Source: Minisyncoccia bacterium
Lineage (GTDB): Bacteria > Patescibacteriota > Minisyncoccia > Phycocordibacterales > PALSA-1337
Assembly (NCBI GenBank): GCA_049997795.1
Contig: JBEKVT010000002.1
Span: forward strand, 1,664-65,663
DNA: 64,000 nt
Direction: 5' to 3'
Shown here: positions 3,670 through 56,311 of the stretch, piece after piece
Layout of the letters: each line of letters begins with the position of its first letter
Position numbering within the stretch: the stretch's first letter is position 1
Program-made: the position numbers and the translations under genes
The notes under the pieces: model-generated
Databases searched by the model: none
Seen by the model: the letters and a program-made list of their open reading frames with translations, nothing else
What the model was told of the DNA's origin: nothing

Positions 3670-4923
3670 CTATTTCTTCCAGTAAGCCCTCTCCGCTCTT
3701 TTCATGTATGACGGCAGGTCTGAGAGAGGAACGATGTCTTGCGAATAGGTGTCGGTGCGCCGGACGATGGCCGTCTTGTCCATGGCCTCTTTTTTGCCCA
3801 TGACGATGACGTAAGGAGTGTGGTACTTCTCGACGGTCGAAACCTGGGCGCCGAGCCGGTCTTTGGAAAGCGACAGATAGAGCGGGATCTTGGCCTGGTG
3901 CAGGCTCTCCACCACCCGAAGGGAGATGAGCTTGGATTCCGTGCCGAGCTGGACGAACGAGGCGATCGGGCGCTTTATCTTCCTCATGTTGTCGCGCAAT
4001 CTCGCGGCCCGGCCCTTGATGAGTAGCGACAGGCCGATCCCCTGGATGTCTTTTTTCATCTCGAGCCGTTTGGCCAGGCCGTTGTAGCGCACGCCGACGC
4101 CGAGGATGTGCTGGCGATCCTTGGCCCGGCCCTTGTCGGCGTCTATCAGGGTGAAGATGGTCTCCGTGCAGTACGAACGGTTGCCTATGAGGCCGTTATT
4201 CAGGACGTAGGGCACCGCCAAGGCTTCCAGGTATTCTAGGACCTCTTCGAGATGCCGCCGGCTGCCTTCGGAGAGGAAATCTATAGAATGCGGGGCGCCG
4301 GCGTTCAGTTCCTTGCACGATCCGTCGTGCGACGATAAGAGCTCGAAGGGATCGCGCTTCAGGATCTGGCGGCACTCCGGCGTCATACCGTTTATATTCT
4401 TCCGGTAGTAGTCGACGAGTTCTCTCGTGAAGCGGGCCAGGGAATCGCGGTCGCCGATCGAGCTTATCTCGACGGCGATGTCTTTGTAACCTTCCTCGGC
4501 GAGCATGGCCCGTCCGGCTTGGATCAGGGTGGCCTCGGCGATCGGCCCGGAATTGCCGAGGATCTCCAAATCGGCGTAGCGGTGGCAGCCGCTCTTCTTC
4601 CCGGCCGCCGGGGCTCCGGCGGCGCGGCGGCAGCGGTCTTTCAGGTAGATCTGGACCGGCTGCGGCCGGTCGCTCCAACCGTCTTCAAGATACGTGCGGA
4701 TCAAGGCGATCTTCTCTTCGACCCGGAGCGGCAGCCTGGCGTGGCGCTCGGTCTCGTCGTCCACGAAATCCGCCCCGGTTATGCTGCGCGCGGCGTCCAA
4801 ATCGGCCTTGGTTATGGCCGGGCTCTTCACCGGGGTGAAGCCGTAATAGACGGCCGTTTCGCCTATCCTGTCGAGATGCTCGACCGGCATGAATTTCGTG
4901 ATCTTATTTGGCGCTTGTCTCAT
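3670..4923 (-). CDS. hisS: Histidine--tRNA ligase (class II aaRS with C-terminal anticodon-binding domain)
   Basis: 417 aa; GVGVRYNGLAKRL...GIGLSL matches HisRS motif 3 region (GGRYDGL...GFAMGLERL); C-terminal YVIVMGKKE anticodon-binding-like; motif 2 looks divergent. Confidence 0.7.
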   Translation of the reverse strand: MRQAPNKITKFMPVEHLDRIGETAVYYGFTPVKSPAITKADLDAARSITGADFVDDETERHARLPLRVEEKIALIRTYLEDGWSDRPQPVQIYLKDRCRRAAGAPAAGKKSGCHRYADLEILGNSGPIAEATLIQAGRAMLAEEGYKDIAVEISSIGDRDSLARFTRELVDYYRKNINGMTPECRQILKRDPFELLSSHDGSCKELNAGAPHSIDFLSEGSRRHLEEVLEYLEALAVPYVLNNGLIGNRSYCTETIFTLIDADKGRAKDRQHILGVGVRYNGLAKRLEMKKDIQGIGLSLLIKGRAARLRDNMRKIKRPIASFVQLGTESKLISLRVVESLHQAKIPLYLSLSKDRLGAQVSTVEKYHTPYVIVMGKKEAMDKTAIVRRTDTYSQDIVPLSDLPSYMKRAERAYWKK

Positions 4924-5485
4924 CGATTTGTCCTGGCATGACGGCGATCTCCGTAAGCGGCATCAGGCGGATGACCGGCCGGCCGATGATGAGATCGGCG
5001 GGAAGCGGCCCCCAGACGCGGGAATCAGAACTCTGGGCGCGGTTGTCTCCCATGACGAAATATTGTGTCGAACCCAAGATGACGGCCGGAGCGGTGTCGT
5101 GCGAGGCGTGAGCGGCTTCGACGTACGGCTCGTCGAGAAAGACGGCCGTCGACGTCCCGGCCGGAGCGATGCCGACCCTGCCGTCCTTCAAGGACACTTT
5201 CTCGCCCGGCAGGCCGACGATGCGCTTGATATAGTAGACCGAGGGGTCGTCCGGATATTCGAAGACGATGACGTCGCCCCTTTTGGGCGGTTCGAAGCGG
5301 TAGGTCAGGCGGTCGACGAGCAGGAATTGGCCGGAAGAGAAGGTCGGATCCATCGAGGCGCCGTTCACCACGAACGGCTCGACGACGAAGAAACGGATGG
5401 GCAGAGCGATGACGAGGGCGATGACGATGATCCTAGCCCATTCACGGACCCCGTTCCAGAATCCGCTTCTTTTCTCGCCATCCAT
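4904..5485 (-). CDS. lepB: Signal peptidase I
   Basis: N-terminal TM, GASMDPTF (Ser box), YIKRIVGLPGE, GDNRAQSSDSR boxes; overlaps hisS start by 20 nt. Confidence 0.9.
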   Translation of the reverse strand: MDGEKRSGFWNGVREWARIIVIALVIALPIRFFVVEPFVVNGASMDPTFSSGQFLLVDRLTYRFEPPKRGDVIVFEYPDDPSVYYIKRIVGLPGEKVSLKDGRVGIAPAGTSTAVFLDEPYVEAAHASHDTAPAVILGSTQYFVMGDNRAQSSDSRVWGPLPADLIIGRPVIRLMPLTEIAVMPGQIDETSAK

Positions 5486-5551: not shown

Positions 5552-6145
5552 ATGATGTTCACGATCGCCGGCCTCGGCAATCCCGGAAAGGAATACGAAG
5601 GCACCCGCCACAACAGCGGGCGGATCATCCTCGACCACATCCGCAAAGAGTGGGACGGCGAGTTCGAACCAGATAAGAAGCTGAATGCGCTAGTCTCGGA
5701 AGTAAAGATCGGCAAGGAGAAAGCGACGCTCGTGGCCCCGGACACCTTCATGAACAATTCCGGCAAGGCCATCGGGAAGCTCATCAAGAATGAGAAGGCC
5801 GCCGAGAAGCTCGTCGTCATCTACGATGATTTCCAGTTGCCGCTAGGCCGCATGAAGATATCTTTCAATAAGAGCGCCGGCGGCCATCGCGGCCTCGATT
5901 CGGTCATCAAGGCCGTGAAGACCGAAGCCTTCACGCGCATCCGGATCGGCACGGCTCCCGCGAATTCGAAAGGCGAAGCCAAAGTGCCGCACGGCGACGA
6001 AAAGATCAATAAGTTCATACTGGGTAAGTTCAAGCCGGATGAATTAAAAACCATCAAGAAAGTCGCCAAGAGAGCCGCCGAAGCCGTCGAAATGATCGTC
6101 AAAGAGGGCAGGGAAAAGGCTATGAGCGTGTTCAATCAAGCGTAG
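5552..6145 (+). CDS. pth: Peptidyl-tRNA hydrolase
   Basis: GLGNPGKEYEGTRHNSG N-terminal signature of Pth. Confidence 0.9.
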   Translation: MMFTIAGLGNPGKEYEGTRHNSGRIILDHIRKEWDGEFEPDKKLNALVSEVKIGKEKATLVAPDTFMNNSGKAIGKLIKNEKAAEKLVVIYDDFQLPLGRMKISFNKSAGGHRGLDSVIKAVKTEAFTRIRIGTAPANSKGEAKVPHGDEKINKFILGKFKPDELKTIKKVAKRAAEAVEMIVKEGREKAMSVFNQA

Positions 6146-6264: not shown

Positions 6265-7533
6265 CTAGCTCTTCTCCCCAGCGTACGCCAGGGCCATCTT
6301 CTGCTCTTTCGGGTCGAAAAGGGCGATCTTGAAGGGATAGGTCTTGCCGAGCTCCAGGACCTTTCGGAGCTTCTCTTCGGAGCCGAATTCGGAGACGTGC
6401 ACCAGGCCGGCCACGCCCTCCTCGATCGAGGCCAGGGCGCCGTGCTTGTTGAACTTGATGATCACGCCGGAGACAGGCATGTCCTTCTTGTACTTCTTGC
6501 CGGCCTCGATCCAGGGATTGGGCCGGAGCTGCTTGATGGAGAGGGACACCTTGCCGTCCTTGATCTCGATGATCTTGGCCTTGATCTTCTGACCGGTCTT
6601 GACGAAGTTGCGCGGATCGTCCACCAGACCCCAGTCGATCTCCGAGATGTGGACCAGGCCCTCGAGGCCCTCTTCCAGCTTGACGAAGACGCCGAAATCG
6701 ACCGCGCCCGTGACCACGCCCTCGACTTCGTCGCCGATCTCGTATTTGCTGACGATCTTCTCCTTCTCTTTGTGCTCCAGGCCCTTCTCGGAGAAGATGA
6801 GCTTGCCTTCCTTCGGGTCGGCGGTGATGATCGAGACCTGGAGGCGCTCCCCGACCAGTTTCCGGAGCTCTTCCAGGATTTTATCCTTGTCGCCGTCGGA
6901 GACCCGCGGATAATGGTCGGTCTTCAGCTGGGAAGCCGGCAGGAAGCCGACGATGCCCTGCCATTCCATGAGCAGGCCGCCCTTGTTCGCTTCTTTGACG
7001 AGGAGGTCGAGGACGCGCTTCTCCTTGATGGCCGCTTCGGCCTCGCTCCAGATCAGGGCTTGCCTGGCCTCTTTCAAGGACAGCTCGTAATAGCCGTCTT
7101 TGTGGGCGTCATCGACGATCTTGGCGGCCACGACGTCGCCGACATTCACCTTCTTGATGACGTCGCGGGCCACGATGTATTCGCGGCCGTATATGATGCC
7201 GGTGCCGAAAGGCGCGAGGTCCACGTAGACCGAGGCCTTGTCCACCGCGATGACCGGCCCCTCGACGAGGTCGCCCACTTGAGGCGGATTCTTCATGGCC
7301 GTGATGAAAGGCGCCATGGCGCTGGCTTTTTGGGCGTCGGAGAGCTCAAGCTCGCCGTTCTTCTTGCCGATCGTTCCGGCGGCCTTCCCGGCCTTCTTCT
7401 CGGCCTTTTTATTCGTTTGTTCTCCGGCTGTCTCTTCGGGATGCTTCCCGGTCTGTTTCTTCGGGACCAGGCCTTCCGTGTCGGGACCCGGGCTCTTGGT
7501 CCCGGTCAAAGTCTCTTTTAATCTTTTGAACAT
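6265..7533 (-). CDS. rpsA: 30S ribosomal protein S1 (4 S1 domains, short form) with Lys/Ala-rich N-terminal region
   Basis: Repeated S1-domain patterns (GDVVAAKIVD, GDEVEGVVTGAVDFGVFVKL, GQKIKAKIIEI, VSGVIIKFNKHGALASI). Confidence 0.85.
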   Translation of the reverse strand: MFKRLKETLTGTKSPGPDTEGLVPKKQTGKHPEETAGEQTNKKAEKKAGKAAGTIGKKNGELELSDAQKASAMAPFITAMKNPPQVGDLVEGPVIAVDKASVYVDLAPFGTGIIYGREYIVARDVIKKVNVGDVVAAKIVDDAHKDGYYELSLKEARQALIWSEAEAAIKEKRVLDLLVKEANKGGLLMEWQGIVGFLPASQLKTDHYPRVSDGDKDKILEELRKLVGERLQVSIITADPKEGKLIFSEKGLEHKEKEKIVSKYEIGDEVEGVVTGAVDFGVFVKLEEGLEGLVHISEIDWGLVDDPRNFVKTGQKIKAKIIEIKDGKVSLSIKQLRPNPWIEAGKKYKKDMPVSGVIIKFNKHGALASIEEGVAGLVHVSEFGSEEKLRKVLELGKTYPFKIALFDPKEQKMALAYAGEKS

Positions 7534-8766: not shown

Positions 8767-11235
8767 ATGGCGAAGAGATCCGACCATAACGAGCCCCAAA
8801 ACAAGCCGGTTCCAGCCGGCATTGTCGCTCGCAACATCTCGACCGAGATGCGCGAGTCTTTTCTCGACTACGCCATGTCGGTCATCACCGACCGCGCCCT
8901 GCCCGACGTCCGCGACGGCCTGAAGCCGGTCCATCGCCGCATCCTGTATGCCATGCACGAGAAGGGCCTCACATTCCAGGCCAAATTCCGCAAGTCGGCT
9001 GTCCCTGTCTCCGATACCATGGGCAATTACCACCCGCACGGCGATGCTGCCATATATGAATCCCTGGTCAAGATGGCCCAGGATTTCACCATGCGTTATC
9101 CCTTGATCCAGGGCCAGGGCAATTTCGGCACGGTAGACGGCGACCCGGCCGCGGCTATGCGCTACACCGAGGCTCGCATGTCGCGCCTGTCTTCCGAATT
9201 ACTGCGCGACATAGACAAGGATACCGTCGAATTCAGACCGAACTACGACGGTACCAAGAAGGAGCCGTCGGTCCTGCCGACTTCGGTGCCGAACCTCTTA
9301 TTGAACGGTACCTTAGGCATCGCCGTCGGCATGGCCACCAACATCGCTCCGCACAATTTACGCGAGGTCGTGGATGCCACTGTCCACCTGGTGGACAATA
9401 AGGATGCCGCTACTGAGGATCTACTCCAATTCATCAAAGGCCCCGATTTTCCTTTGGGCGCCGTCATCTATGGCGAGAAAGACATCCATCATGCCTATGC
9501 CACTGGCCGCGGCGGCATGATGGTGCGCGGCGAGGCCGAGATCACCGAAGACAAGAAAGGCCAGTATCAGATCGTCATCACTTCGATCCCGTTCCGGGTG
9601 AACAAGAGCGAGCTCATCATGAAGATCGCCGACCTGGTGCACGGGAAGGTGATCGAAGGCGTCAAAAGCCTGCGCGACGAGTCTGACAAGGAGATGCGCA
9701 TCGTGATCGACCTGAAACAGGGCTCATATCCGGAGAAGGTCCTGAATCTTCTCTACAAGCACACCCAGCTCGAAGAGACTTTCCATATGAACACTGTGGC
9801 CCTGGTCGGCGGCGTGCCGCAGACCCTGGGTCTCAAATCCATCCTCCAGGAATTCATCGCCCACAGGATCGAGGTCATCCGCCGCCGCACCAAGTTCGAT
9901 CTCGCCACGGCGGAAGCGCGCGAGCACATCCTAGTCGGCCTGAAGAAGGCTCTCGACCATATCGATGAGATCATAAAATTGATCCGCGCCGCCAAGGACG
10001 CGACCGAAGCCCACGCCGGGCTCGTGAAGAAGTTCAAATTCAGCGATTTGCAAGCCACGGCCATCCTGGAGATGAAGCTCGTCAAGCTCGCCGGCTTGGA
10101 GCGCAAGAAGGTCCTCGACGAGCTCAAGGAAGTCCAAACGCTGATCGAAGACCTGAAGAGCATCCTCGGCAGCGAAAAACGAGTTCGCACGATCATCAAA
10201 ACAGAGCTTGCCGAGATAAGAGGGAAGTACGGAGACGACCGCCGGACCAAGATAGTGAAGCACGGCGTCAAAGAGTTCAACCCCGAAGACCTGATCGCCG
10301 ACGAGGAATCGGTGCTGGTCCTTACGAAAGGCGGCTATATCAAGCGCACCGACCCTGGCGAATATCGCAAACAGAGGCGCGGCGGCGTCGGGGTGGTTGA
10401 TCTCGACACCAAGGAGGAGGACTTCATCTCGCATCTCATCTTCGCTACCACCCACAACGACTTGCTCTTCTTCACGGACAAAGGCAAGGCCTACCAGATC
10501 AAGATGTACGAGATCCCGGAAGGCAAGCGGGCGACCAAGGGCAAGTCGATCATGAATTTCCTGTCGCTCGCGGACGGTGAGCGCGTGACCTCCATCCTGC
10601 CCATGCCCAAGAACAAGAAAGAAGCCGAGGGACTATCTCTCATGATGGTGACCAAGAACGGCACCGGCAAGAAGACCGCCGCAGAGCATTTCAAGGACGT
10701 CCGCCGCTCGGGGCTCATCGCCATCACTCTCGACAAGGGCGACGAATTGATATCGGCCTCTTTCGTCTCCAAGCCTGACGAGGTCGTGATAGCGACCAAA
10801 GAAGGCCAATCCATCCATTTCAAAGAAAGCGACGTGCGCCAAATGGGCCGCAATGCCGCCGGCGTGCGCGTCGTCCGCCTGGGGAAGAGCGACCGCGTCA
10901 TCTCGGCAGACATCGTCGGGAAAGAAGCCAAGAACCCGTGCCTTTTCGTCATGGGGGCGAACGGCTACGGCAAGAAGACCAAGCTCTCTGAATACAAGGT
11001 CCAGAATCGCGGCGGCTCCGGCATTCTGACCATGAACGTGACGGGGAAGACCGGCTCTCTGATGGCCGCCAAGGTCGTGACCGATCTCGACCAGGAAATC
11101 GTGGCCATGTCCAAGAAGTCCCAAGTCATCCGCGTCGATCTAAAGGAGATACCCACTCTCTCTCGCGCCACCCAGGGTGTCCGGGTCATGAAGCTCCGCG
11201 AGGGCGATTCGCTGGCGAGCTTGATTTGCATATAA
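8767..11235 (+). CDS. gyrA: DNA gyrase subunit A
   Basis: 822 aa; [12 protein letters not shown], catalytic Tyr region [11 protein letters not shown]-terminal beta-pinwheel repeats. Confidence 0.95.
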
Positions 11236-11287
11236 ACGTTAGGCCGCGAGGGTGATTCAGTCCGAGTCCAAACCAGCCAGCTAGCAC

Positions 11288-11695
11288 ATGAATGCAGATG
11301 CGCTTAAAGGAGTAACCATTAAAGATGCCGGAGTGAAAGGCCGCGGAATCTTTGCTCTGCGAGATTTCAAGAAAGGAGAGCTGGTGTTAGGTTGGAATAA
11401 AGAAAATAGATTTCTTTCTGAAGAGGAAATTTCAGATCTGCCAGAGGGAGAAAAAAAGTATGTTGCCTTGTGCAACGGGAAATATCTTCTAATCTCAGAA
11501 CCAGAACGTTACATGAATCATTCTTGTGATCCTAATACTATAAATGAAAACGGTCTTGACTACGCTCTTAGAGATATCAAGAAAGGCGAGGAGATTACAG
11601 GAGATTATGATCGGGGAGGTTCATTGTTAGGATTTGAATGTAAATGCGACAGTAAAAATTGCAGAAAGGTAGTTCGTCCCAGGAAGCTTAATTGA
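11288..11695 (+). CDS. SET-domain protein (putative protein-lysine methyltransferase)
   Basis: 135 aa; NHSCDPN, GEEITGDY and post-SET Cys cluster CKCDSKNCRK; low-GC codon usage. Confidence 0.75.
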   Translation: MNADALKGVTIKDAGVKGRGIFALRDFKKGELVLGWNKENRFLSEEEISDLPEGEKKYVALCNGKYLLISEPERYMNHSCDPNTINENGLDYALRDIKKGEEITGDYDRGGSLLGFECKCDSKNCRKVVRPRKLN

Positions 11696-11715
11696 GTTGT
11701 TTCAGGTCAATTATA

Positions 11716-11746
11716 GTTCCGACATCGTACCACGCAGCCAGCCAAT
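11716..11746 (+). repeat. Direct-repeat motif S1: GTTCCGACATCGTACCACGCAGCCAGCCAAT
   Basis: Near-identical to S2 (12317-12348); related to S3/S4 at 30108/30602. Confidence 0.6.
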
Positions 11747-11749
11747 AAA

Positions 11750-12313
11750 ATGAACAATTATATCTTTGGTTATGGAAGTCTCGTGAACAAAGAAAGTCGC
11801 GGACTTACCGGTAAATCAGCACTGATCGGCCCAGTACGAGTGCGCGGAATAAGACGCGGGTGGAATGTCCAAGTCACTGATAAAACAGTACTTGGCGCCA
11901 CATAAGAGCCGGGCGCTATTTGTAATGGAGTAATCGTGTCTGTGCCAGAGCAGGAATTAGCAAGGTACGATGAAAGGGAGATCCCATCGAAATATAAAAG
12001 AATTGAATTACCAGTGGCGAATGTAAATCTTCTCAATAATAAAAGTTCGAGTGGAACCTTCTGGACATATGTCGCGATTGATCCAAAAGATCCTGACGCT
12101 GAACATCCCATCCCTCAGTCATATATAGATGTAGTACTCACCGGTTTTTTGGATTTTGGGACTGACTTTGCAAAAGAGTTCGTCGATTCTACGGAGGGAT
12201 GGAAATATATTGTGAATGATCGAGATAACCCACTGTACTCGAGAGCATTAAAGAATGTTGAACGTAGAGCTGAAATTGACACCCTCCTTTCCAAGGCAAG
12301 TCTAGTCTCCTAG
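11750..12313 (+). pseudogene. Gamma-glutamyl cyclotransferase-like (GGCT/AIG2/ChaC-like) gene interrupted by in-frame TAA at 11903-11905
   Basis: N-terminal MNNYIFGYGSLVNKESRGL (YGSL motif); downstream same-frame segment ELARYDEREIPSKYKRIELPV fits the LDxxE...YxRxxVxV GGCT pattern; ATG 11750 and track ORF 11936..12313 are in the same frame, separated by TAA. Confidence 0.6.
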
Positions 12314-12316
12314 CAA

Positions 12317-12348
12317 GGTTCCAACATCGTACCACGCAGCCAGCCGAT
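12317..12348 (+). repeat. Direct-repeat motif S2: GGTTCCAACATCGTACCACGCAGCCAGCCGAT
   Basis: Begins 4 nt after stop of the GGCT-like gene. Confidence 0.6.
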
Positions 12349-12413
12349 TGAAGCACAGCATTTTTGTCCCCACCGGCCGAGACAGGCCGGCCCTTCAAAC
12401 GTGGTAAAATGAT

Positions 12414-12938
12414 ATGGTCATGTTTTCGGATCCAGCCGCGAATCTGGCGAAATTAGGCCTTGCGGACGGCATGAAAGTCGTCGATCTGGGGGCCGGCTCC
12501 GGCTTCTATTCCATGGAGGCGGCCAAGATGGTCGGCGCGACCGGCCGGGTCTACGCCGTGGACGTTCAGAAAGAGCTCCTCGAGCGCCTGCGGGGGGTTG
12601 CGGCCTCGCACGGCATCCGCAACATCGAAGTCATCTGGGGCAACGCCGAGAAGATCGGCGGGCTCAGATTGAGGGATGGTCTGGCGGACCGGGTCATCGC
12701 CTCGAACATCCTCTTTCAGATAGCCAAGCCGGACGATTTCGTCTTGGAGATAAAGCGCGCTCTGAAGCCCGGCGGCAAGGTCCTCCTCATCGACTGGAGC
12801 GGGGCCAGCGCCTTGAGCCCCAAGACCATCGTGCCGGCTCAAAAGGCCCAGACGCTTTTCGAGAAGAACGGCTTCGGGCTCGAACAGTCTTTCGGAGCGG
12901 GAGACCACCATTACGGGCTCGTATTTGTCAGGAATTGA
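12414..12938 (+). CDS. Class I SAM-dependent methyltransferase
   Basis: VVDLGAGSGFYS motif I; ALKPGGKVLLID motif; possible alternative start at 12420 six to nine nt after TGgTAAAAT. Confidence 0.8.
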   Translation: MVMFSDPAANLAKLGLADGMKVVDLGAGSGFYSMEAAKMVGATGRVYAVDVQKELLERLRGVAASHGIRNIEVIWGNAEKIGGLRLRDGLADRVIASNILFQIAKPDDFVLEIKRALKPGGKVLLIDWSGASALSPKTIVPAQKAQTLFEKNGFGLEQSFGAGDHHYGLVFVRN

Positions 12939-14254: not shown

Positions 14255-14692
14255 ATGAAACACGCTCTCTTCATCGCATCGCTTCTCGTCCTTCTCGGTC
14301 CGTTCGCCGCGCCGACCGTCCTGGCCCAGGTGCCGGAAGCCAACATAAACAACGCCAGCTTCCGTCTCGTCATCTGCGATGGACCGGCTCTGCCGGCGAA
14401 CGTCCCGCCGCCGACAACTGACTACGTCCCTTGTGACTTCCAGCATCTCATGATAGAGGCCCAATACCTGATCAACGTCATGATAATCCTCGGCACACTC
14501 GGAGCCTTGATAGGCTTCGCTTACGCCGGCTATCTCTACATAACCGGCACCCAGCCGAATCTGGCCAAGGCCAAGGGCATATTTCCAAAGGTCTTCTGGG
14601 GGTTTATACTGATGCTGACCGCCTGGTTCATCGTCTATCAGATCCTCTCTTGGCTGACCGGGAACGCCGCGACGTATCTCGGCGGCTCGTAA
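14255..14692 (+). CDS. Pilin-like paralog P1: signal peptide + two C-terminal TM helices (VirB2/TrbC-like architecture); 2 Cys in exposed region
   Basis: SP MKHALFIASLLVLLGPFAAPTVLAQV; C-terminal FWGFILMLTAWFIVYQILSWL. Confidence 0.6.
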   Translation: MKHALFIASLLVLLGPFAAPTVLAQVPEANINNASFRLVICDGPALPANVPPPTTDYVPCDFQHLMIEAQYLINVMIILGTLGALIGFAYAGYLYITGTQPNLAKAKGIFPKVFWGFILMLTAWFIVYQILSWLTGNAATYLGGS

Positions 14693-14696
14693 TCAC

Positions 14697-15125
14697 ATGA
14701 AGAACATCCCGATGAAGAATCTCATTTATACCTTGGCTCTGGCCGTTTTGCTCGTCGGGGCTGCTCAATCCGCGAACGCCGATATCCAATCGGGGAACCC
14801 GAGCGGCACCTTCTCCCTTCAAAACCCTCTGCAATTCACGACCGTCGGCGACCTCATCAACGGCTTCCTGCAGATATTCTCATATGTGGCCGTCCTGTTC
14901 GCCGTCCTGATGCTAGTCTGGGTCGGCCTGCAATTCGTCCTGGCCAGGGGCAACCCCGAACGCATGAAAGTGCTGAAAAACTGGCTCCTGTGGATCGTCA
15001 TCGGGGCGGCCATCGTGATCGGCGCCAGGATCATCGTCTCGGTCGTCATAAACACCCTAGGCTCGACAGGCGCGGTCAACCAGAATATCCTGAATAGCGC
15101 CAATAACGCCCTCAATAAGCCGTGA
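14697..15125 (+). CDS. Pilin-like paralog P2 (SP + two TM helices)
   Basis: SP ...LALAVLLVGAAQSANA; helix pair FSYVAVLFAVLMLVWVGLQF / WLLWIVIGAAIVIGARIIV. Confidence 0.6.
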   Translation: MKNIPMKNLIYTLALAVLLVGAAQSANADIQSGNPSGTFSLQNPLQFTTVGDLINGFLQIFSYVAVLFAVLMLVWVGLQFVLARGNPERMKVLKNWLLWIVIGAAIVIGARIIVSVVINTLGSTGAVNQNILNSANNALNKP

Positions 15126-15164
15126 GACCTCTTGGCCGATTAACAGCCGTTTAAAAACATAACC

Positions 15165-15554
15165 ATGAAGAAAAAGCTCATCGTGTTTGCCTCCGTCCTC
15201 CCGTTCATCTTGCCGACCGTGGTTCAAGCTCAAACCCCCGTCGCTCTCAATTGTGATCCGAAGACATTATGCTATGTCGTGAGCCAGGTCATCGCGTACC
15301 TGAACCTGGCCTTGAGCTTGCTGATGGCGGTGGCCATCGTCATGTTCGTGTGGTACGTGATCAAGTATTACATCAGGCCCAACGAGGAGCGCAAACAAGC
15401 CGGACTATACGTCATGTACAGCATCATCGGCTTTTTCGTCATCCTGTCCATCTGGGGCATCATCAACATCCTCGGCAGCACCTTCGGTCTGGGGAACGCC
15501 GGCAACCAGCAAAAGAGCTGGAGCAGCTTCGTCAATCTCTTCCCGCAGCAATGA
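15165..15554 (+). CDS. Pilin-like paralog P3 (SP + two TM helices, Cys pair)
   Basis: C-terminal YSIIGFFVILSIWGIINILGSTFGLGNAGNQ shared with P4. Confidence 0.65.
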   Translation: MKKKLIVFASVLPFILPTVVQAQTPVALNCDPKTLCYVVSQVIAYLNLALSLLMAVAIVMFVWYVIKYYIRPNEERKQAGLYVMYSIIGFFVILSIWGIINILGSTFGLGNAGNQQKSWSSFVNLFPQQ

Positions 15555-15589
15555 AATATTATGATCGACCATAACCGATACACACTATC

Positions 15590-15913
15590 ATGATGCAAGT
15601 CACGGACGTCAATTCACTGTTCTACAAGCTGAATGGGATCGGCAACGCCGTGACCATTCTGCTCGTCTCGCTCGCGGTCATCTGGATAGTCGTCTCCGTC
15701 GTGCGTTTCATCATGGCGAGCGGGGAGAACCGGGCCGTTCACCGGGCTTCCGTCCTTTGGGGCATCGTCGGTCTAGCCGTCATCCTGTCCATCTGGGGCA
15801 TCATCAACATCTTCGGGCGCACTTTTGGACTGGGAAATGCCCAGAATCAATGGCGATCTTCGAGGGACGCGAACAGCCTGATCATGACGCCTCCGGTATC
15901 GCCATTCCAGTAA
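15590..15913 (+). CDS. Pilin-like paralog P4, no signal peptide (possible silent or truncated copy)
   Basis: Starts directly in mature-like region VTDVNSLFYKLNGIGNAV; shares 33-nt identical block gtcatcctgtccatctggggcatcatcaacatc with P3. Confidence 0.5.
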   Translation: MMQVTDVNSLFYKLNGIGNAVTILLVSLAVIWIVVSVVRFIMASGENRAVHRASVLWGIVGLAVILSIWGIINIFGRTFGLGNAQNQWRSSRDANSLIMTPPVSPFQ

Positions 15914-16015
15914 TCCACAGCCAGCGCTTCTTTTTAGAGGCGATATCGGCTATAATCCGGATGGCTACAAGTGATTTTAACAGTCGTCATTAACCAATCA
16001 TCCATCAGCATTATC

Positions 16016-16378
16016 ATGAAAAAGCTCATAGCATCGCTCGCGGTCCTGACCCCGTCGGTCGCCTTCGCCGCCCAGCCGATCACTGACGTCAACTCGCTGA
16101 CCCAGAAGCTGACCGGCATCGGCAATACCGTGATCGGCATCCTGATCTCGCTCGCGGTCATCTGGATCATCTGGAACGTCGTCTCTTTCATCATCCACGC
16201 CGACAATCCGGAGAAGCGCGGCGAGAGCGGCAAGGCCATCCTTTGGGGCGTCGTCGGCCTGTTCGTCATCCTGTCCATCTGGGGCCTGGTCAACATCCTG
16301 ACCGGCACGTTCAGCACCAATACCCAGGCGCCGGTCCAGAACTACCCGGTCAATCCCAATCCGCCGATAGTCCAGTGA
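16016..16378 (+). CDS. Pilin-like paralog P5 (SP + two TM helices)
   Basis: MKKLIASLAVLTPSVAFAAQPITDVNSLTQKLTGIGNTV...; TATAAT at about 15945. Confidence 0.65.
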   Translation: MKKLIASLAVLTPSVAFAAQPITDVNSLTQKLTGIGNTVIGILISLAVIWIIWNVVSFIIHADNPEKRGESGKAILWGVVGLFVILSIWGLVNILTGTFSTNTQAPVQNYPVNPNPPIVQ

Positions 16379-29374: not shown

Positions 29375-29458
29375 GCGCAGGTGGCAGAGTGGTCAATTGC
29401 AATGGACTGTAAATCCATCGCCCTATGGGCTACGGGGGTTCAAATCCCTCCCTGCGCA
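29375..29458 (+). tRNA. tRNA-Tyr (anticodon GTA), long variable arm
   Basis: GCGCAGGTGGCAGAGTGG...ACTGTAAATCC...GGGGGTTCAAATCCCTCCCTGCGCA. Confidence 0.85.
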
Positions 29459-29475
29459 CAAATCTTTTGTGATAT

Positions 29476-29507
29476 GGTAAAGAAAAAAGCCCGCGTCGAT
29501 GGCGCGG
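29476..29507 (-). terminator. Intrinsic terminator for minus-strand gene 29521-29937 (GCCCGCG...CGCGGGC hairpin + U-run)
   Basis: Seen in sequence. Confidence 0.5.
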
Positions 29508-29520
29508 GCTCACAAAACAT

Positions 29521-29937
29521 TCACGGATAGCCCAGTTGCTGGAAAGCCGCGTAGAAAGCGGCTGCGTCTCTGGCTGATTTATCTGCCGCTTCTTGGGTGG
29601 CTGTCCATCGCCTGTCGATCCTGACGACATCTCCGACCTTGATAACTGCGCTTAGGGGAGCATAGGTTGACATTGAATGAAGGCGGACACTGACCTCATC
29701 TCCTGTGGGGAAAGAAGTCTTACCGTCCTTGTCGCAGTCGAGGTAACGGATCATGATAAAGCTGTTGCCCACTACATTATTGTCGACCGCTACCACCTTG
29801 CCGTAGGACACAGGATTCAGTTGACCACGAGATCCTTTGTATATCACTACGCCGGCTAAGACAGCCAAGACAACAACCCCGAGATAGAGGAATACAAGGG
29901 GAGGATATTCCTTGAAAAATAGAAATAGTTTTTTCAT
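29521..29937 (-). CDS. Hypothetical membrane-anchored protein (138 aa), island cargo
   Basis: N-terminal TM LVFLYLGVVVLAVLAGVVI then ~100-aa domain; lower GC than flanks. Confidence 0.45.
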   Translation of the reverse strand: MKKLFLFFKEYPPLVFLYLGVVVLAVLAGVVIYKGSRGQLNPVSYGKVVAVDNNVVGNSFIMIRYLDCDKDGKTSFPTGDEVSVRLHSMSTYAPLSAVIKVGDVVRIDRRWTATQEAADKSARDAAAFYAAFQQLGYP

Positions 29938-30107
29938 AGCTGAAGTTTGGTTGAAAGACGCGACAGAATTGTCTCGCCTTCGTTCCCAAACTCCAACTCA
30001 TTTCAATGATCCTAACTACCTAACATTATATAGCATTTAATATCTATTTGTCAAGCTCTATTAATTCCATCGGAACGCTGTTTTAGTGACTTAAGTTCAT
30101 TAAAAAG

Positions 30108-30140
30108 GTTCTAACTTCGTCCCACGCAGCGCACAAATCC
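30108..30140 (+). repeat. Direct-repeat motif S3: GGTTCTAACTTCGTCCCACGCAGCGCACAAATC
   Basis: 17/20 nt identity to tRNA-Tyr 3' end plus trailer; T-loop-like GGTTC start. Confidence 0.6.
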
Positions 30141-30226
30141 TTCCAACAACAATCAGTAATACAAAAAGCCGCTCGGAATGGTACGAGCGGCCGATAACAC
30201 ATCATTGACGAGATTCGATCGTGACA

Positions 30227-30490
30227 TTATCCGCCGTCCTCGACAAGTTCTTCCGGCTTGACCGGTTCTCCATATCTGGGAGCTTTCCAGTCTGGCTGAC
30301 AGCTTGGACAATGCAGATGCCCAACTTGTATCACCTTGCCGCTCCCCGAAAGCGGAAATGGTCCATCGTGGAGTGAACGGCCTGTCTGGGTGCACAGAAT
30401 GTCGACTCCCGTCTTTTTGCAAGTCCAACCATTGGGTCCGTGAACAGCGTGTTCCTGGAGCCATTTTGCATCTGTTGCGAGAATAGTCAC
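30227..30490 (-). CDS. Small Cys-containing hypothetical protein (87 aa; CxxxxxxxxC ... CPSC), island cargo
   Basis: Flanked by S3 and S4; followed by hairpin GCCGCTCGGAATGGTACGAGCGGC. Confidence 0.4.
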   Translation of the reverse strand: MTILATDAKWLQEHAVHGPNGWTCKKTGVDILCTQTGRSLHDGPFPLSGSGKVIQVGHLHCPSCQPDWKAPRYGEPVKPEELVEDGG

Positions 30491-30601
30491 GGCTTACCTT
30501 TCTATATTTGAATGACCACCGAGATAAGTATCCGGGACTGACATTACTACTTAAACCACTACTGTCAAGATAATGATTTAACGGCTCAGACTCATCAAAG
30601 A

Positions 30602-30635
30602 GGTTTCAACTTCATCCTACGCAGCGCACGATTCA
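30602..30635 (+). repeat. Direct-repeat motif S4: GGTTTCAACTTCATCCTACGCAGCGCACGATTCA, abutting alr stop
   Basis: Near-identical to S3. Confidence 0.6.
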
Positions 30636-54666: not shown

Positions 54667-54672
54667 TCAAAG

Positions 54673-54975
54673 ATGGGAAGCTACAACAAATTGGTCAGGG
54701 ATAAAATCCCTGAAATCCTCGATAAGAAAGGCGTTGCATACGAGAAGAGGGCTGCTTCTCCTGAAGAATACAAGGCTGAGCTCGTAAAGAAGCTCGGTGA
54801 AGAGGCCGGGGAATTATCTGAGACTGGAGATCCGGAAGAATTAGCTGATATTGCGGAAGTCATCGAAGCCCTTAAGAAGCTCCCTGAATATAAAAATATC
54901 GAGGAACTAAGACGGAAAAAGCACGCGGAACGTGGGGGTTTTGACAAAAAGATCATCCTTAGGGGCGAGAAGTGA
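54673..54975 (+). CDS. MazG-like nucleotide pyrophosphohydrolase, small form
   Basis: 100 aa; EExxEL...DxEELxDxxDV pattern; AT-richer than neighbours. Confidence 0.55.
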   Translation: MGSYNKLVRDKIPEILDKKGVAYEKRAASPEEYKAELVKKLGEEAGELSETGDPEELADIAEVIEALKKLPEYKNIEELRRKKHAERGGFDKKIILRGEK

Positions 54976-54987
54976 TAATATGGCAAT

Positions 54988-55161
54988 ATGTCAGCATCCG
55001 GCAATTTTTTCCAAGTCATCGCCAAAACGGCTTTTGAATGGGCGTATGGGGGATTGAGAACTATAGCAGTCGCGCACGGCTTGGCGATATTGGAAGTGCT
55101 TGTCTTATTGGTCGTCATCGTCATCCTTATTAAAATATACCACCGCATAAAGATAAAATGA
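54988..55161 (+). CDS. Possible small hydrophobic protein (57 aa), low confidence
   Basis: ORF MSASGNFFQVIAKTAFEWAYGGLRTIAVAHGLAILEVLVLLVVIVILIKIYHRIKIK overlapping rpiB start by 4 nt. Confidence 0.25.
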   Translation: MSASGNFFQVIAKTAFEWAYGGLRTIAVAHGLAILEVLVLLVVIVILIKIYHRIKIK

Positions 55162-55625
55162 GCAAAGACGCAAAAACGATCATTCTCGCCGCCGACCATG
55201 CGGGCTTCAAGCTGAAGGAAGCAGTTAAATCGTTCTTGGAAGCGAAGAAGTTCCGGGTCCTGGACGTCGGCGCTCATGAATATACGGAAGACGACGATTA
55301 TCCGGTTTACATGACGGCTGCGGCCATGAAAGTGGCGGAAGATCTAAGCGGGGAGACGAAGGCGGTGATCTTCGGCGGCTCGGGGGCAGGGGAAGCCATC
55401 GTGGCCAATAGATTCCCAGGCGTCCGGGCTCTGGTCTGGTACGGCGGCAATAAGGAAATCTTGAAGCTGTCTCGCGAGCACAATAACGCAAATGTCCTGT
55501 CGATGGGCGCCAGATTCGTGGACGAAAGTACTGCCAAGGAAGCAATCGAATTGTGGTTTTCCACGCCATTCTCGAACGAAGAGCGGCACAAGCGCAGGAT
55601 CCAGGAGATAGACAACATCGAGTGA
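55158..55625 (+). CDS. rpiB: Ribose-5-phosphate isomerase B
   Basis: RpiB/LacA family patterns (AADHAGF..., GGSGAGEAIVANR). Confidence 0.85.
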   Translation: MSKDAKTIILAADHAGFKLKEAVKSFLEAKKFRVLDVGAHEYTEDDDYPVYMTAAAMKVAEDLSGETKAVIFGGSGAGEAIVANRFPGVRALVWYGGNKEILKLSREHNNANVLSMGARFVDESTAKEAIELWFSTPFSNEERHKRRIQEIDNIE

Positions 55626-56311
55626 TGAGCAAGATCGAGATAATCCCGGCGATCCTTCCCAAGGACTTCAAAGAGATTGAAGACAAGGCCGTCATGGTGA
55701 AGGGCCTGGTGAAGACCGTGCAGATCGACATCTGCGACGGTCATTTCGTGCCTTCATTCACTTGGCCCTACAAGAAGCATGACGATTCTTTCGAGAAGAT
55801 AGTCCATGAGGAAGAAGGCCTGCCGTGCTGGCAAGATCTTGATTACGAATTCGATCTGATGGTCGATAGTCCGGAGAAAGTCGTCGACGAATGGGTGGAG
55901 GCCGGCGGGAGCAGGATCATCGTCCACGCGGAGTCGAAGGGCAACGTCGGTAAAGCGATCGATATCTTGCAAGACCGCGTCGAGATCGGGTTGGCCCTGA
56001 ATGAAGACACGCCGCTCGACGCCATCAATCCCTACCGTGAGAAGATAAACTTCGTCCAGCTCATGGGCATAGATAAGATCGGCTTCCAAGGCCAGGCTTT
56101 TGACGAGAAGGTGGACGGCAGGATAAAGGAAGCCAGGATAAAGTTCCCGGGCTTACCGATCTCGATCGACGGCGGAGTCTCATTAGAGACAGCGCCGGAG
56201 CTCGTTGCCGCAGGCGCTGACAGGCTGGTGGCAGGATCAGCCATATTCAGTTCCGACAACGTGGTGGAAGCCTTGGAGAAGTTCAAACGGCTCTCTTCAC
56301 GGCCGAAGTGA
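55625..56311 (+). CDS. rpe: Ribulose-phosphate 3-epimerase
   Basis: MSKIEIIPAILPKDF...DICDGHFVP signature; ATG overlaps rpiB stop. Confidence 0.85.
   Translation: MSKIEIIPAILPKDFKEIEDKAVMVKGLVKTVQIDICDGHFVPSFTWPYKKHDDSFEKIVHEEEGLPCWQDLDYEFDLMVDSPEKVVDEWVEAGGSRIIVHAESKGNVGKAIDILQDRVEIGLALNEDTPLDAINPYREKINFVQLMGIDKIGFQGQAFDEKVDGRIKEARIKFPGLPISIDGGVSLETAPELVAAGADRLVAGSAIFSSDNVVEALEKFKRLSSRPK

Follow-up and report, generated by a model that had tools for sequence, protein, structure and literature searches.

We analyzed a 64-kb stretch of DNA, hereafter the window, from a peat-bog bacterium that NCBI labels 'Minisyncoccia bacterium' (Patescibacteria, or Candidate Phyla Radiation, CPR), focusing on a gene islet between gyrA and a methyltransferase gene. 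The islet (island 1) spans about 1.12 kb of the + strand (11236..12359), from the gyrA stop codon to the native spacer and promoter of the methyltransferase gene. It carries a relic of a tRNA 3' end (S0), an intact gene for a small SET-domain protein, a 28-nucleotide (nt) site (S1), a pseudogene related to gamma-glutamyl cyclotransferase (GGCT), and a second 28-nt site (S2). In 300-nt windows at 11200-12400, the guanine-plus-cytosine (GC) content was 0.38-0.47, compared with 0.56-0.63 on both flanks; over the 1125-nt stretch 11236-12360 it was 0.434, compared with 0.577 for the whole window. Among all sliding windows, the islet had the minimum GC (z -4.8) and was the top tetranucleotide outlier (z 6.2). 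Similarly, GC at third codon positions was 0.32 in the SET gene and 0.38 in the GGCT-like gene, versus 0.79 in gyrA, 0.81 in the methyltransferase gene and 0.84 in the SBP gene. The sharp drop in GC between the end of gyrA (11235) and the methyltransferase gene, which had been predicted by eye, was thus borne out by the calculated GC and tetranucleotide profiles.

This foreign DNA is absent from the closest relatives found. In the two closest GyrA relatives (L034 and L035; 88% identity), one of which sits on a 305-kb 'Paceibacterota' contig, gyrA is followed by a 64-nt spacer and the methyltransferase gene, with no insert. The surrounding gene order is common to the window and these relatives: an S1 gene (distinct from the site S1), a Lactamase_B_3 gene, a 98-residue (aa) gene, gyrA, the methyltransferase gene, the SBP gene and T4SS-pilin paralogs. 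Homology to the native spacer of L034 and L035 (TTGTCCCCA...TGGTAAAAT, then ATG) resumes in the window from 12360, fixing the right edge of the insert at about 12359. The original prediction, which had described a foreign, cassette-like gene-site-gene-site insert and had proposed comparing the gyrA loci of relatives, was therefore upheld in its substance, and its right boundary of 12400 was moved inward. Comparison with the same empty sites delimits 14 nt, GATTGAAGCACAGC (12346..12359, +), between S2 and the native spacer. The C-terminal end of GyrA is the same in the window and the relatives (last residue I or L), indicating that gyrA was untouched by the insertion. A third relative (L036; GyrA 86% identical) has a different filler of 439 nt in the same spacer, with a tRNA- or tmRNA-like (transfer-messenger RNA-like) 3' fragment on the - strand at 5099-5190 (weak Rfam matches only) and a terminator-like hairpin. 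Judged from these sequences, the gyrA-methyltransferase spacer may be a recurrent insertion point.

Contigs carrying the locus came from JGI, ENA and Logan assemblies of many samples (10 found through the SET gene and 10 through the methyltransferase gene, some shared; longest, 657 kb), and all of them were 99.95-100% identical over 10701-12700. The islet has kept a strongly unameliorated composition, and of its two genes one is intact while the other has acquired one nonsense mutation, which together suggests that the insertion was recent.

We next describe the two sites. The direct repeat that the original prediction had placed after each gene was confirmed, with both copies found by pattern match. 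S1 (11716..11743, +; nhmmer E 2e-10) consists of the arm GTTCCGACATCGTACCACGCAGC, the tail CAGC and C, and the open reading frame (ORF) after it begins 7 nt later. S2, GTTCCAACATCGTACCACGCAGCCAGCC (12318..12345, +; nhmmer E 3e-11), starts 5 nt past the stop codon of the pseudogene. Both match GTTCCRACATCGTACCACGCAGCCAGCC without mismatch and are identical to each other at 27/28 positions. No further match to GTTCCRACATCGTACCACGCAGCCAGCC at <=3 mismatches was found in the 64 kb, and shuffled sequences gave an expectation of 0. S2 is identical over 31 nt to a site on another contig, L025, described below. Contigs of the k=31 Logan assemblies end or start exactly at S2, because this 31-mer is shared with L025.

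We scanned GTDB representative genomes and JGI metagenomes for exact matches to the 20-mer ATCGTACCACGCAGCCAGCC. Besides the locus of the window itself (L030), two real contexts were found, both beside tRNA genes. The richer one is JBEKOM010000035.1 (L025), a 6.7-kb contig from SPRUCE peat, with a near-duplicate from another sample (L027). Its array, which directly follows pyrG-tRNA-Gln, holds seven copies of the site, every one of them on the + (tRNA) strand, at distances of 369-1039 nt; the copies have 0-2 mismatches, and one contains a 1-nt indel. The site-terminated segments after the tRNA encode, in order, a 197-aa membrane protein, an HD_4 protein and a Cys-rich 139-aa protein; the fourth is an ORF-less unit of 400 nt; and the fifth to seventh encode a 193-aa protein, an ASCH protein and, on the - strand, a DUF4886/GDSL protein. 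After the last site comes an Asp/Glu racemase gene that extends to the end of the contig. The GC content of the segments is 0.37-0.58, and that of pyrG is 0.62. L025 was deposited in a Bathyarchaeia metagenome-assembled genome, yet carries a bacterial pyrG. Its PyrG is 69-71% identical to PyrG on Patescibacteria-type contigs that have FtsEX, RF-1 and the same pyrG-tRNA-Gln arrangement, indicating that L025 is probably a misbinned patescibacterial contig. The other context, JACZCZ010050513.1 (L029; GC 0.35), has tRNA-Gln, one - strand gene and a perfect site at the contig end. Matches to the 20-mer in an Acidobacteriota genome (L024) and in L026/L028 were rejected as unrelated, since similarity stops at the 20-mer; about 1 chance match is expected in ~10^12 positions, which fits these cases. 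No exact site match was found in IMG/VR.

A looser scan of the window revealed a second island (29375..30630, +) with a GC content of 0.476, the second lowest in the window. This island 2 consists of a tRNA-Tyr gene (29375-29459), two cassettes and two divergent copies of the site, site A (30108-30135; nhmmer E 1.5e-9) and site B (30603-30630; E 1.3e-7), both with the tail GCAC. The gene in the first cassette lies on the - strand, has a terminator hairpin of its own and encodes a 138-aa protein with a signal peptide; the second cassette has a doubtful 87-aa ORF, also on the - strand. The 3' end of an alanine racemase gene follows site B. At all four loci (4/4), the site has the orientation of the tRNA and the array, even where cassette genes lie on the opposite strand (L025 4950-5774, island 2 and L029).

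In every context the edges of the site are sharp, with the start (G)GTTCC, the end GCCAGC or GCGCAC, and unrelated flanks. On the + strand, ORFs typically begin 7-15 nt after a site, and the next site follows 3-20 nt past the stop codon. The first 24 nt of the site, the arm (GGTTCYAACWTCGTMCCACGCAGC), resemble the 3' end of tRNA-Gln (GGTTCGAGTCCAAGCCCCGCAGC) at both extremities, namely GGTTC and CCNCGCAGC (GGTTC...CCCCGCAGC). The 4-nt tail equals the last 4 nt of the tRNA of the array: CAGC at tRNA-Gln loci and at S0, and GCAC at tRNA-Tyr. The arm subtype ending in CTTCGTCCCACGCAGC has the tail CAGC at a tRNA-Gln locus (the L025 site at 4901) and GCAC at tRNA-Tyr, indicating that arm and tail are separable parts. 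We infer this division, which has one independent locus behind it, and the position of the crossover. What the sites have in common with the resident tRNA is limited to GGTTC, a portion of the acceptor strand and the final 4 nt, and they differ from that tRNA at about 1/3 of positions; they are near-identical between hosts with GC contents of ~0.35, 0.6 and 0.58. DNA folding of the spacers on both strands gave no significant secondary structure (z -1.8 to +2.1), an Rfam search of 11100-12500 at E <= 5 returned nothing but noise, and the site contains no sigma-70-like hexamers and no promoter or terminator consensus.

At the left edge of the islet lies S0, AGTCCGAGTCCAAACCAGCCAGC (11259..11281, +), which corresponds to the 3' end of tRNA-Gln from the T-loop to the acceptor end. 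It matches the tRNA-Gln of L025 at 17/23 positions, and its last 4 nt are CAGC. Apart from S0, this score was reached in the window only at two real tRNA genes, one for tRNA-Gln (46280) and one for tRNA-Leu; of 20,000 shuffled spacers, 2 reached it. S0 had been proposed as a weak third copy of the site, a proposal that we rejected: its identity to S1 in ungapped register is 61%, a search with a profile of 12 site copies missed it even at E <= 50, and it fits the tRNA-Gln end better. By its sequence, S0 is best described as a relic of the tRNA-Gln 3' end, and ARAGORN called no tRNA at this position. It may be a pseudo-target, or a piece carried along from a donor array. Abutting S0, a repeat search found a near-copy (14/15) of 15 nt of gyrA codons, CCGCGAGGGYGATTC (11244..11258, +). 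The first copy, at 11196-11210, lies within the last gyrA codons, 48 nt away start to start. The second copy matches gyrA of the lineage of the window, not gyrA of the relatives. This direct repeat may reflect microhomology or be a scar of the insertion junction.

As predicted, the gene of the first cassette (11288..11695, +) codes for a SET-domain protein of 135 aa that includes a post-SET Cys cluster. It matched PF00856 over the full-length profile (57.9 bits; cut-off, 22.4; E 1.5e-15), and its translation contains NHSCDPN, GEEITGDY and CKCDSKNC, so that the catalytic NHS/C motif and the Tyr-containing motif are both present. The nearest solved structures were the SET domains of KMT2A/MLL (E 3e-7). 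A homolog search gave 228 matches at E <= 1e-3, the named ones mostly from Patescibacteria and DPANN. The best homolog (68% identical) is on another, lower-GC Patescibacteria contig, and the more distant named matches are from DPANN archaea. The protein resembles small prokaryotic and viral SET lysine methyltransferases (PF00856) in its SET core and post-SET Cys cluster, and homologs of similar size are common in Patescibacteria and DPANN, contrary to the original view of the fold as rare in bacteria. It differs from them in that its gene is cargo of a putative mobile cassette rather than part of the core genome.

The second cassette carries a GGACT/AIG2-like, that is, gamma-glutamyl cyclotransferase-like, pseudogene (11750..12316, +). 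The family assignment made in the original prediction stood, whereas its status as a gene did not. The frame matched PF06094 at residues 5-118 (33.8 bits; cut-off, 22.8; E 5.6e-8), spanning an in-frame TAA at 11903-11905. This stop replaces codon 52, where homologs carry E or K, and splits the gene into ORFs of 51 aa and 125 aa; gene callers annotate only the 123-125-aa tail, as 'hypothetical protein'. The TAA is present in every recovered contig, from independent assemblies, indicating a fixed pseudogene rather than a sequencing error. To judge from its sequence, the gene belongs to the GGACT/AIG2 family by descent and has been inactivated. Intact homologs are 188 aa long and 65% and 59% identical, and the closer of them lies on a lower-GC Patescibacteria contig; the phylogenetic affinity of both proteins thus agrees with a foreign origin. 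No sigma-70-like promoter and no terminator was found on the + strand of the islet, and its + strand cassettes are probably expressed by read-through from gyrA.

Homologs of both cargo genes occur in tRNA-adjacent variable regions. One intact GGCT-like homolog directly follows tRNA-Gln at a pyrG locus (L031), and another lies three genes downstream of tRNA-Gln at a pyrG locus (L032), each within a run of small unrelated genes. In L031, a decayed site beginning GGTTCCAACTTC stands after the GGCT-like gene. The best SET homolog stands shortly after tRNA-Ser, between copies of another direct repeat of 15-17 nt, GCGCYCGAGACGCGTCG, and a sequence related to GCGCYCGAGACGCGTCG follows tRNA-Gln in L032. 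Other SET homologs are found in runs of small unrelated genes, one of them with its own 24-nt intergenic repeat. These locations indicate that both cargo genes come from a pool of small genes in Patescibacteria. Blastn of the islet against PLSDB plasmids and INPHARED phages gave no similarity, and viral relatives of the SET and GGCT-like proteins are 26-36% identical, with two short SET fragments (~30-40 residues) reaching 55%.

Several other repeats were seen at the loci of these homologs. A second, unrelated family of short sites, GCYCGAGACGCGTYG (preceded by TAGAG), flanks the 68% SET gene after tRNA-Ser (L018 5948-5964 and 6415-6431) and follows tRNA-Gln in L032 (5527-5541). On a contig with a GC content of 0.33 (L021), the GC-rich intergenic 24-nt direct repeat CCCCTGCCCCACAAACCTTCAMCT (4606-4629, 5673-5696 and 7369-7392) parts groups of small genes, including a SET homolog, downstream of tRNA-Gln. 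Upstream of the GGCT-like homolog of L032, a 114-nt direct repeat (6447-6560 and 6879-6992; 82% identity) surrounds a small His_Phos_1 gene; it holds CGAGTC..CCAGCTAG, which recalls S0, as well as the extended -10 box TGGTATAAT.

Our preferred reading, to which we give a probability of roughly 0.6, is that the islet is a recent horizontal insert of two trans-mobilized cassettes, acquired by site-specific recombination at tRNA-like ends in a peat Minisyncoccia bacterium. Single-gene cassettes, first SET and then the now-inactivated GGCT-like gene, would have entered the spacer between gyrA and the methyltransferase gene. Each cassette would end in a 28-nt recombination site composed of a 24-nt cassette-borne arm and 4 nt equal to the end of the target tRNA. 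Each inserted cassette would thereby bring a new mimic of a tRNA end, so that further cassettes could be added at the same place, and the resulting gene-site-gene-site arrays would start at a tRNA gene or, as here, at a tRNA-Gln 3' relic. No integrase family was called within about 10 kb of either islet and the cassettes themselves lack a recombinase, suggesting that the enzyme acts in trans, like that of integron cassettes. Recombination is the step that we infer in this reading.

Several observations weigh against such a mechanism. Precomputed Pfam annotation of all called genes about 10 kb on either side of islands 1 and 2 contained no Phage_integrase or other recombinase family, and none was seen on L025 or L029. 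Among the cassette ORFs that were scanned, the Pfam matches are to SET, GGACT, HD_4, ASCH and DUF4886/GDSL, the other ORFs having none, and the Asp/Glu racemase is likewise no recombinase. Neither a circular intermediate, nor an excision product, nor polymorphism in cassette content was seen among the recovered contigs. Island 1 adjoins no tRNA gene, only the 23-nt relic, and the mechanism offers no explanation for the arrival of this relic and of the 15-nt gyrA copy at the left edge. The site family comprises four loci in three organisms, and the database scans accepted exact matches only. The resemblance between the arm and tRNA-Gln is limited to the two ends (GGTTC and CCNCGCAGC), and the division into arm and tail has a single independent test, the tRNA-Tyr locus.

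Tandem accretion offers another route to such arrays: integrase-carrying elements would have inserted successively into a tRNA 3' end, each adding a partial tRNA repeat, and decayed to one cargo gene each, and the block would later have moved beside gyrA. That the arrays begin at tRNA genes and that S0 is a partial tRNA-Gln end would fit this history, and in Prochlorococcus, tycheposons document tandem elements separated by partial tRNA copies and degenerate remnants (bioRxiv 10.1101/2020.12.28.424599). However, the repeats do not reproduce the end of the resident tRNA, yet are near-identical across hosts of different GC, and the units are minimal (369-1039 nt) and sharp-edged, with no integrase domain in the ORFs scanned. 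Independent decay, moreover, would not yield seven near-identical sites around unrelated genes of differing GC, and we regard this history as unlikely. We judge it somewhat less likely still that no dedicated recombinase exists and that the 28-mers are short homology anchors, at which cassettes are swapped through natural transformation together with recombination that is either RecA-dependent or illegitimate and homology-facilitated. Competence for DNA uptake is generally regarded as a trait of Patescibacteria. Two co-occurring peat organisms have an identical 31-mer at their sites, no integrase is nearby, and 15 nt of microhomology with gyrA are present at the left junction, all in keeping with such swaps. 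By contrast, 28 nt is at the lower limit for RecA pairing, and homology anchors leave unexplained the locus-specific 4-nt tails, the strict orientation, the resemblance to tRNA ends and the location at tRNAs.

A role for the 28-mer in gene expression, as an operator, an RNA-processing signal or tRNA-like punctuation, or a translation-initiation leader, would make its recurrence a product of selection. The site is often separated from the next start codon by 7-15 nt, a gap that lacks a Shine-Dalgarno sequence, and tRNA-like elements can serve as marks for processing by RNase P/Z. A regulatory motif, however, leaves the contrast between insertion and empty site unexplained. It also does not account for a site that keeps the tRNA orientation whichever strand carries the cassette gene, or that is identical across genomes of very different GC while the DNA between its copies is unrelated and compositionally foreign. 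The lack of a significant fold, of an Rfam match and of sigma-70-like hexamers described above likewise argues against this role, which we consider improbable. Finally, we give almost no credence to an artifact of assembly or binning, or to chance similarity, as the source of the repeat or of the whole islet. The break of the k=31 Logan contigs at S2 and the Bathyarchaeia label of L025 could be read in that way, but the break is explained by the 31-mer shared with L025, and the label is probably a binning error rather than a sign of a cross-domain chimera, given the PyrG identity and shared synteny. In addition, JGI, ENA and Logan assemblies agree almost perfectly over the locus, long contigs span it, and 0 chance matches to the site are expected.

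Patescibacteria have tiny genomes with few recognizable mobile elements, yet their gene content varies at the strain level. Beyond the proposed cassette insertion by site-specific recombination at this locus, we tentatively propose, as a possibility that we hold to be less than even, that Patescibacteria have a gene-cassette capture system of their own, parallel to integrons in function and distinct in mechanism, in which 24-nt mimics of tRNA 3' ends and a recombinase acting in trans would place single-gene cassettes at the extreme end of a tRNA gene or a previous cassette, building hypervariable arrays and shuttling small accessory genes, SET methyltransferases for example, between ultra-small symbionts. 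Several such systems may exist, as is hinted by the second site family, GCYCGAGACGCGTYG, which occurs at tRNA-Ser and tRNA-Gln loci. In the literature searched, we found no description of the site sequence or of such cassettes in CPR. If the proposal is true, these arrays would represent a second, independent evolutionary solution to the integron problem, the capture of promoterless genes one at a time at a fixed platform, with mimicry of tRNA ends in place of folded attC sites. A searchable 28-nt site would also provide a handle on the mobile gene pool of Patescibacteria, through a catalog of cassettes, identification of the recombinase by co-occurrence and detection of circles in metagenomes. 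As for annotation, a compositional island beside an essential gene gains an explanation, the GGCT-like pseudogene is flagged, and a Bathyarchaeia-binned contig is recognized as very probably patescibacterial.

Other features of the window were noted. The methyltransferase gene seems near-leaderless (12395-12416), with the extended -10-like box TGGTAAAAT 5 nt 5' of its ATG; this box is also kept in the relatives with the empty site. Beyond the SBP gene, at 14255-16378, lies a series of five to six paralogous genes for small membrane proteins of the T4SS_pilin/TrbC type (PF18895/PF04956), which is conserved in the relatives. The third-lowest GC of the window (~0.50) is at 54670-55630, between a GAPDH-like gene and a 252-aa gene downstream (functions assigned by eye). 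This region contains, also by eye, a 100-aa MazG-like gene and a 155-aa RpiB-like gene, has no site copies and no tRNA, and looks native or older.

We compared the sites and arrays with known systems. CRISPR arrays have repeats of 23-50 nt with similarly short spacers, and this identity was rejected, since the copies here are 369-1039 nt apart and the intervals are protein-coding. As in pdif modules and integrative mobile elements exploiting Xer (IMEX), small groups of genes are framed by 28-nt sites, and the recombinase would act in trans. A dif-type site is built of a 6-nt core between two inverted 11-nt arms, and pdif modules carry such sites in alternating orientation. When the first 11 nt of the site described here (GTTCCAACATC) are compared with the reverse complement of its last 11 nt (GGCTGGCTGCG), 1/11 positions agree, and a dif or pdif identity was rejected for want of inverted arms. 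Unlike pdif sites, moreover, the copies are without exception direct repeats, and several loci in one genome carry arrays at tRNA ends.

With tycheposons and other tRNA-targeted islands, the arrays share seeding at tRNA 3' ends, partial-tRNA-like direct repeats between units, variable cargo, and small streamlined genomes without other mobile elements. Island 2 (tRNA-Tyr), L025 and L029 (both tRNA-Gln) lie at a tRNA 3' end, whereas island 1 lies beside gyrA with its 23-nt relic only. The arrays differ from tRNA-targeted islands in that each unit is 0.4-1 kb long and holds one gene, with neither an integrase nor a replication module; no tyrosine or serine integrase was present among the scanned cassette ORFs. 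Nor do the repeats behave as attL and attR copies of the resident tRNA: each is a conserved, element-borne mimic with a 4-nt locus-specific tail.

Integrons provide the remaining comparison. Their attC sites are imperfect palindromes of 57-141 nt with the architecture R''(RYYYAAC)-L''...L'-R'(GTTRRRY), which fold as single strands. The site described here is 28 nt long, is not an imperfect palindrome and does not fit the R''/L''-L'/R' architecture; only a weak R''-like TTCCAAC was found, with no complementary R'. It is conserved in sequence rather than in structure, no intI adjoins the array, and the array starts at a tRNA 3' end rather than at attI. On the grounds of site length, lack of a palindrome, non-significant folding and absence of intI, an identity with attC and integrons was rejected. 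In layout, by contrast, integron-type arrays are present at island 1 (2 cassettes), island 2 (2 cassettes) and L025 (7 segments): as in integrons, they consist of mostly promoterless, unrelated, single small genes, each with a terminal site in the same orientation, include ORF-less and reverse-oriented cassettes, carry no cassette-borne recombinase, and are presumably expressed from upstream.

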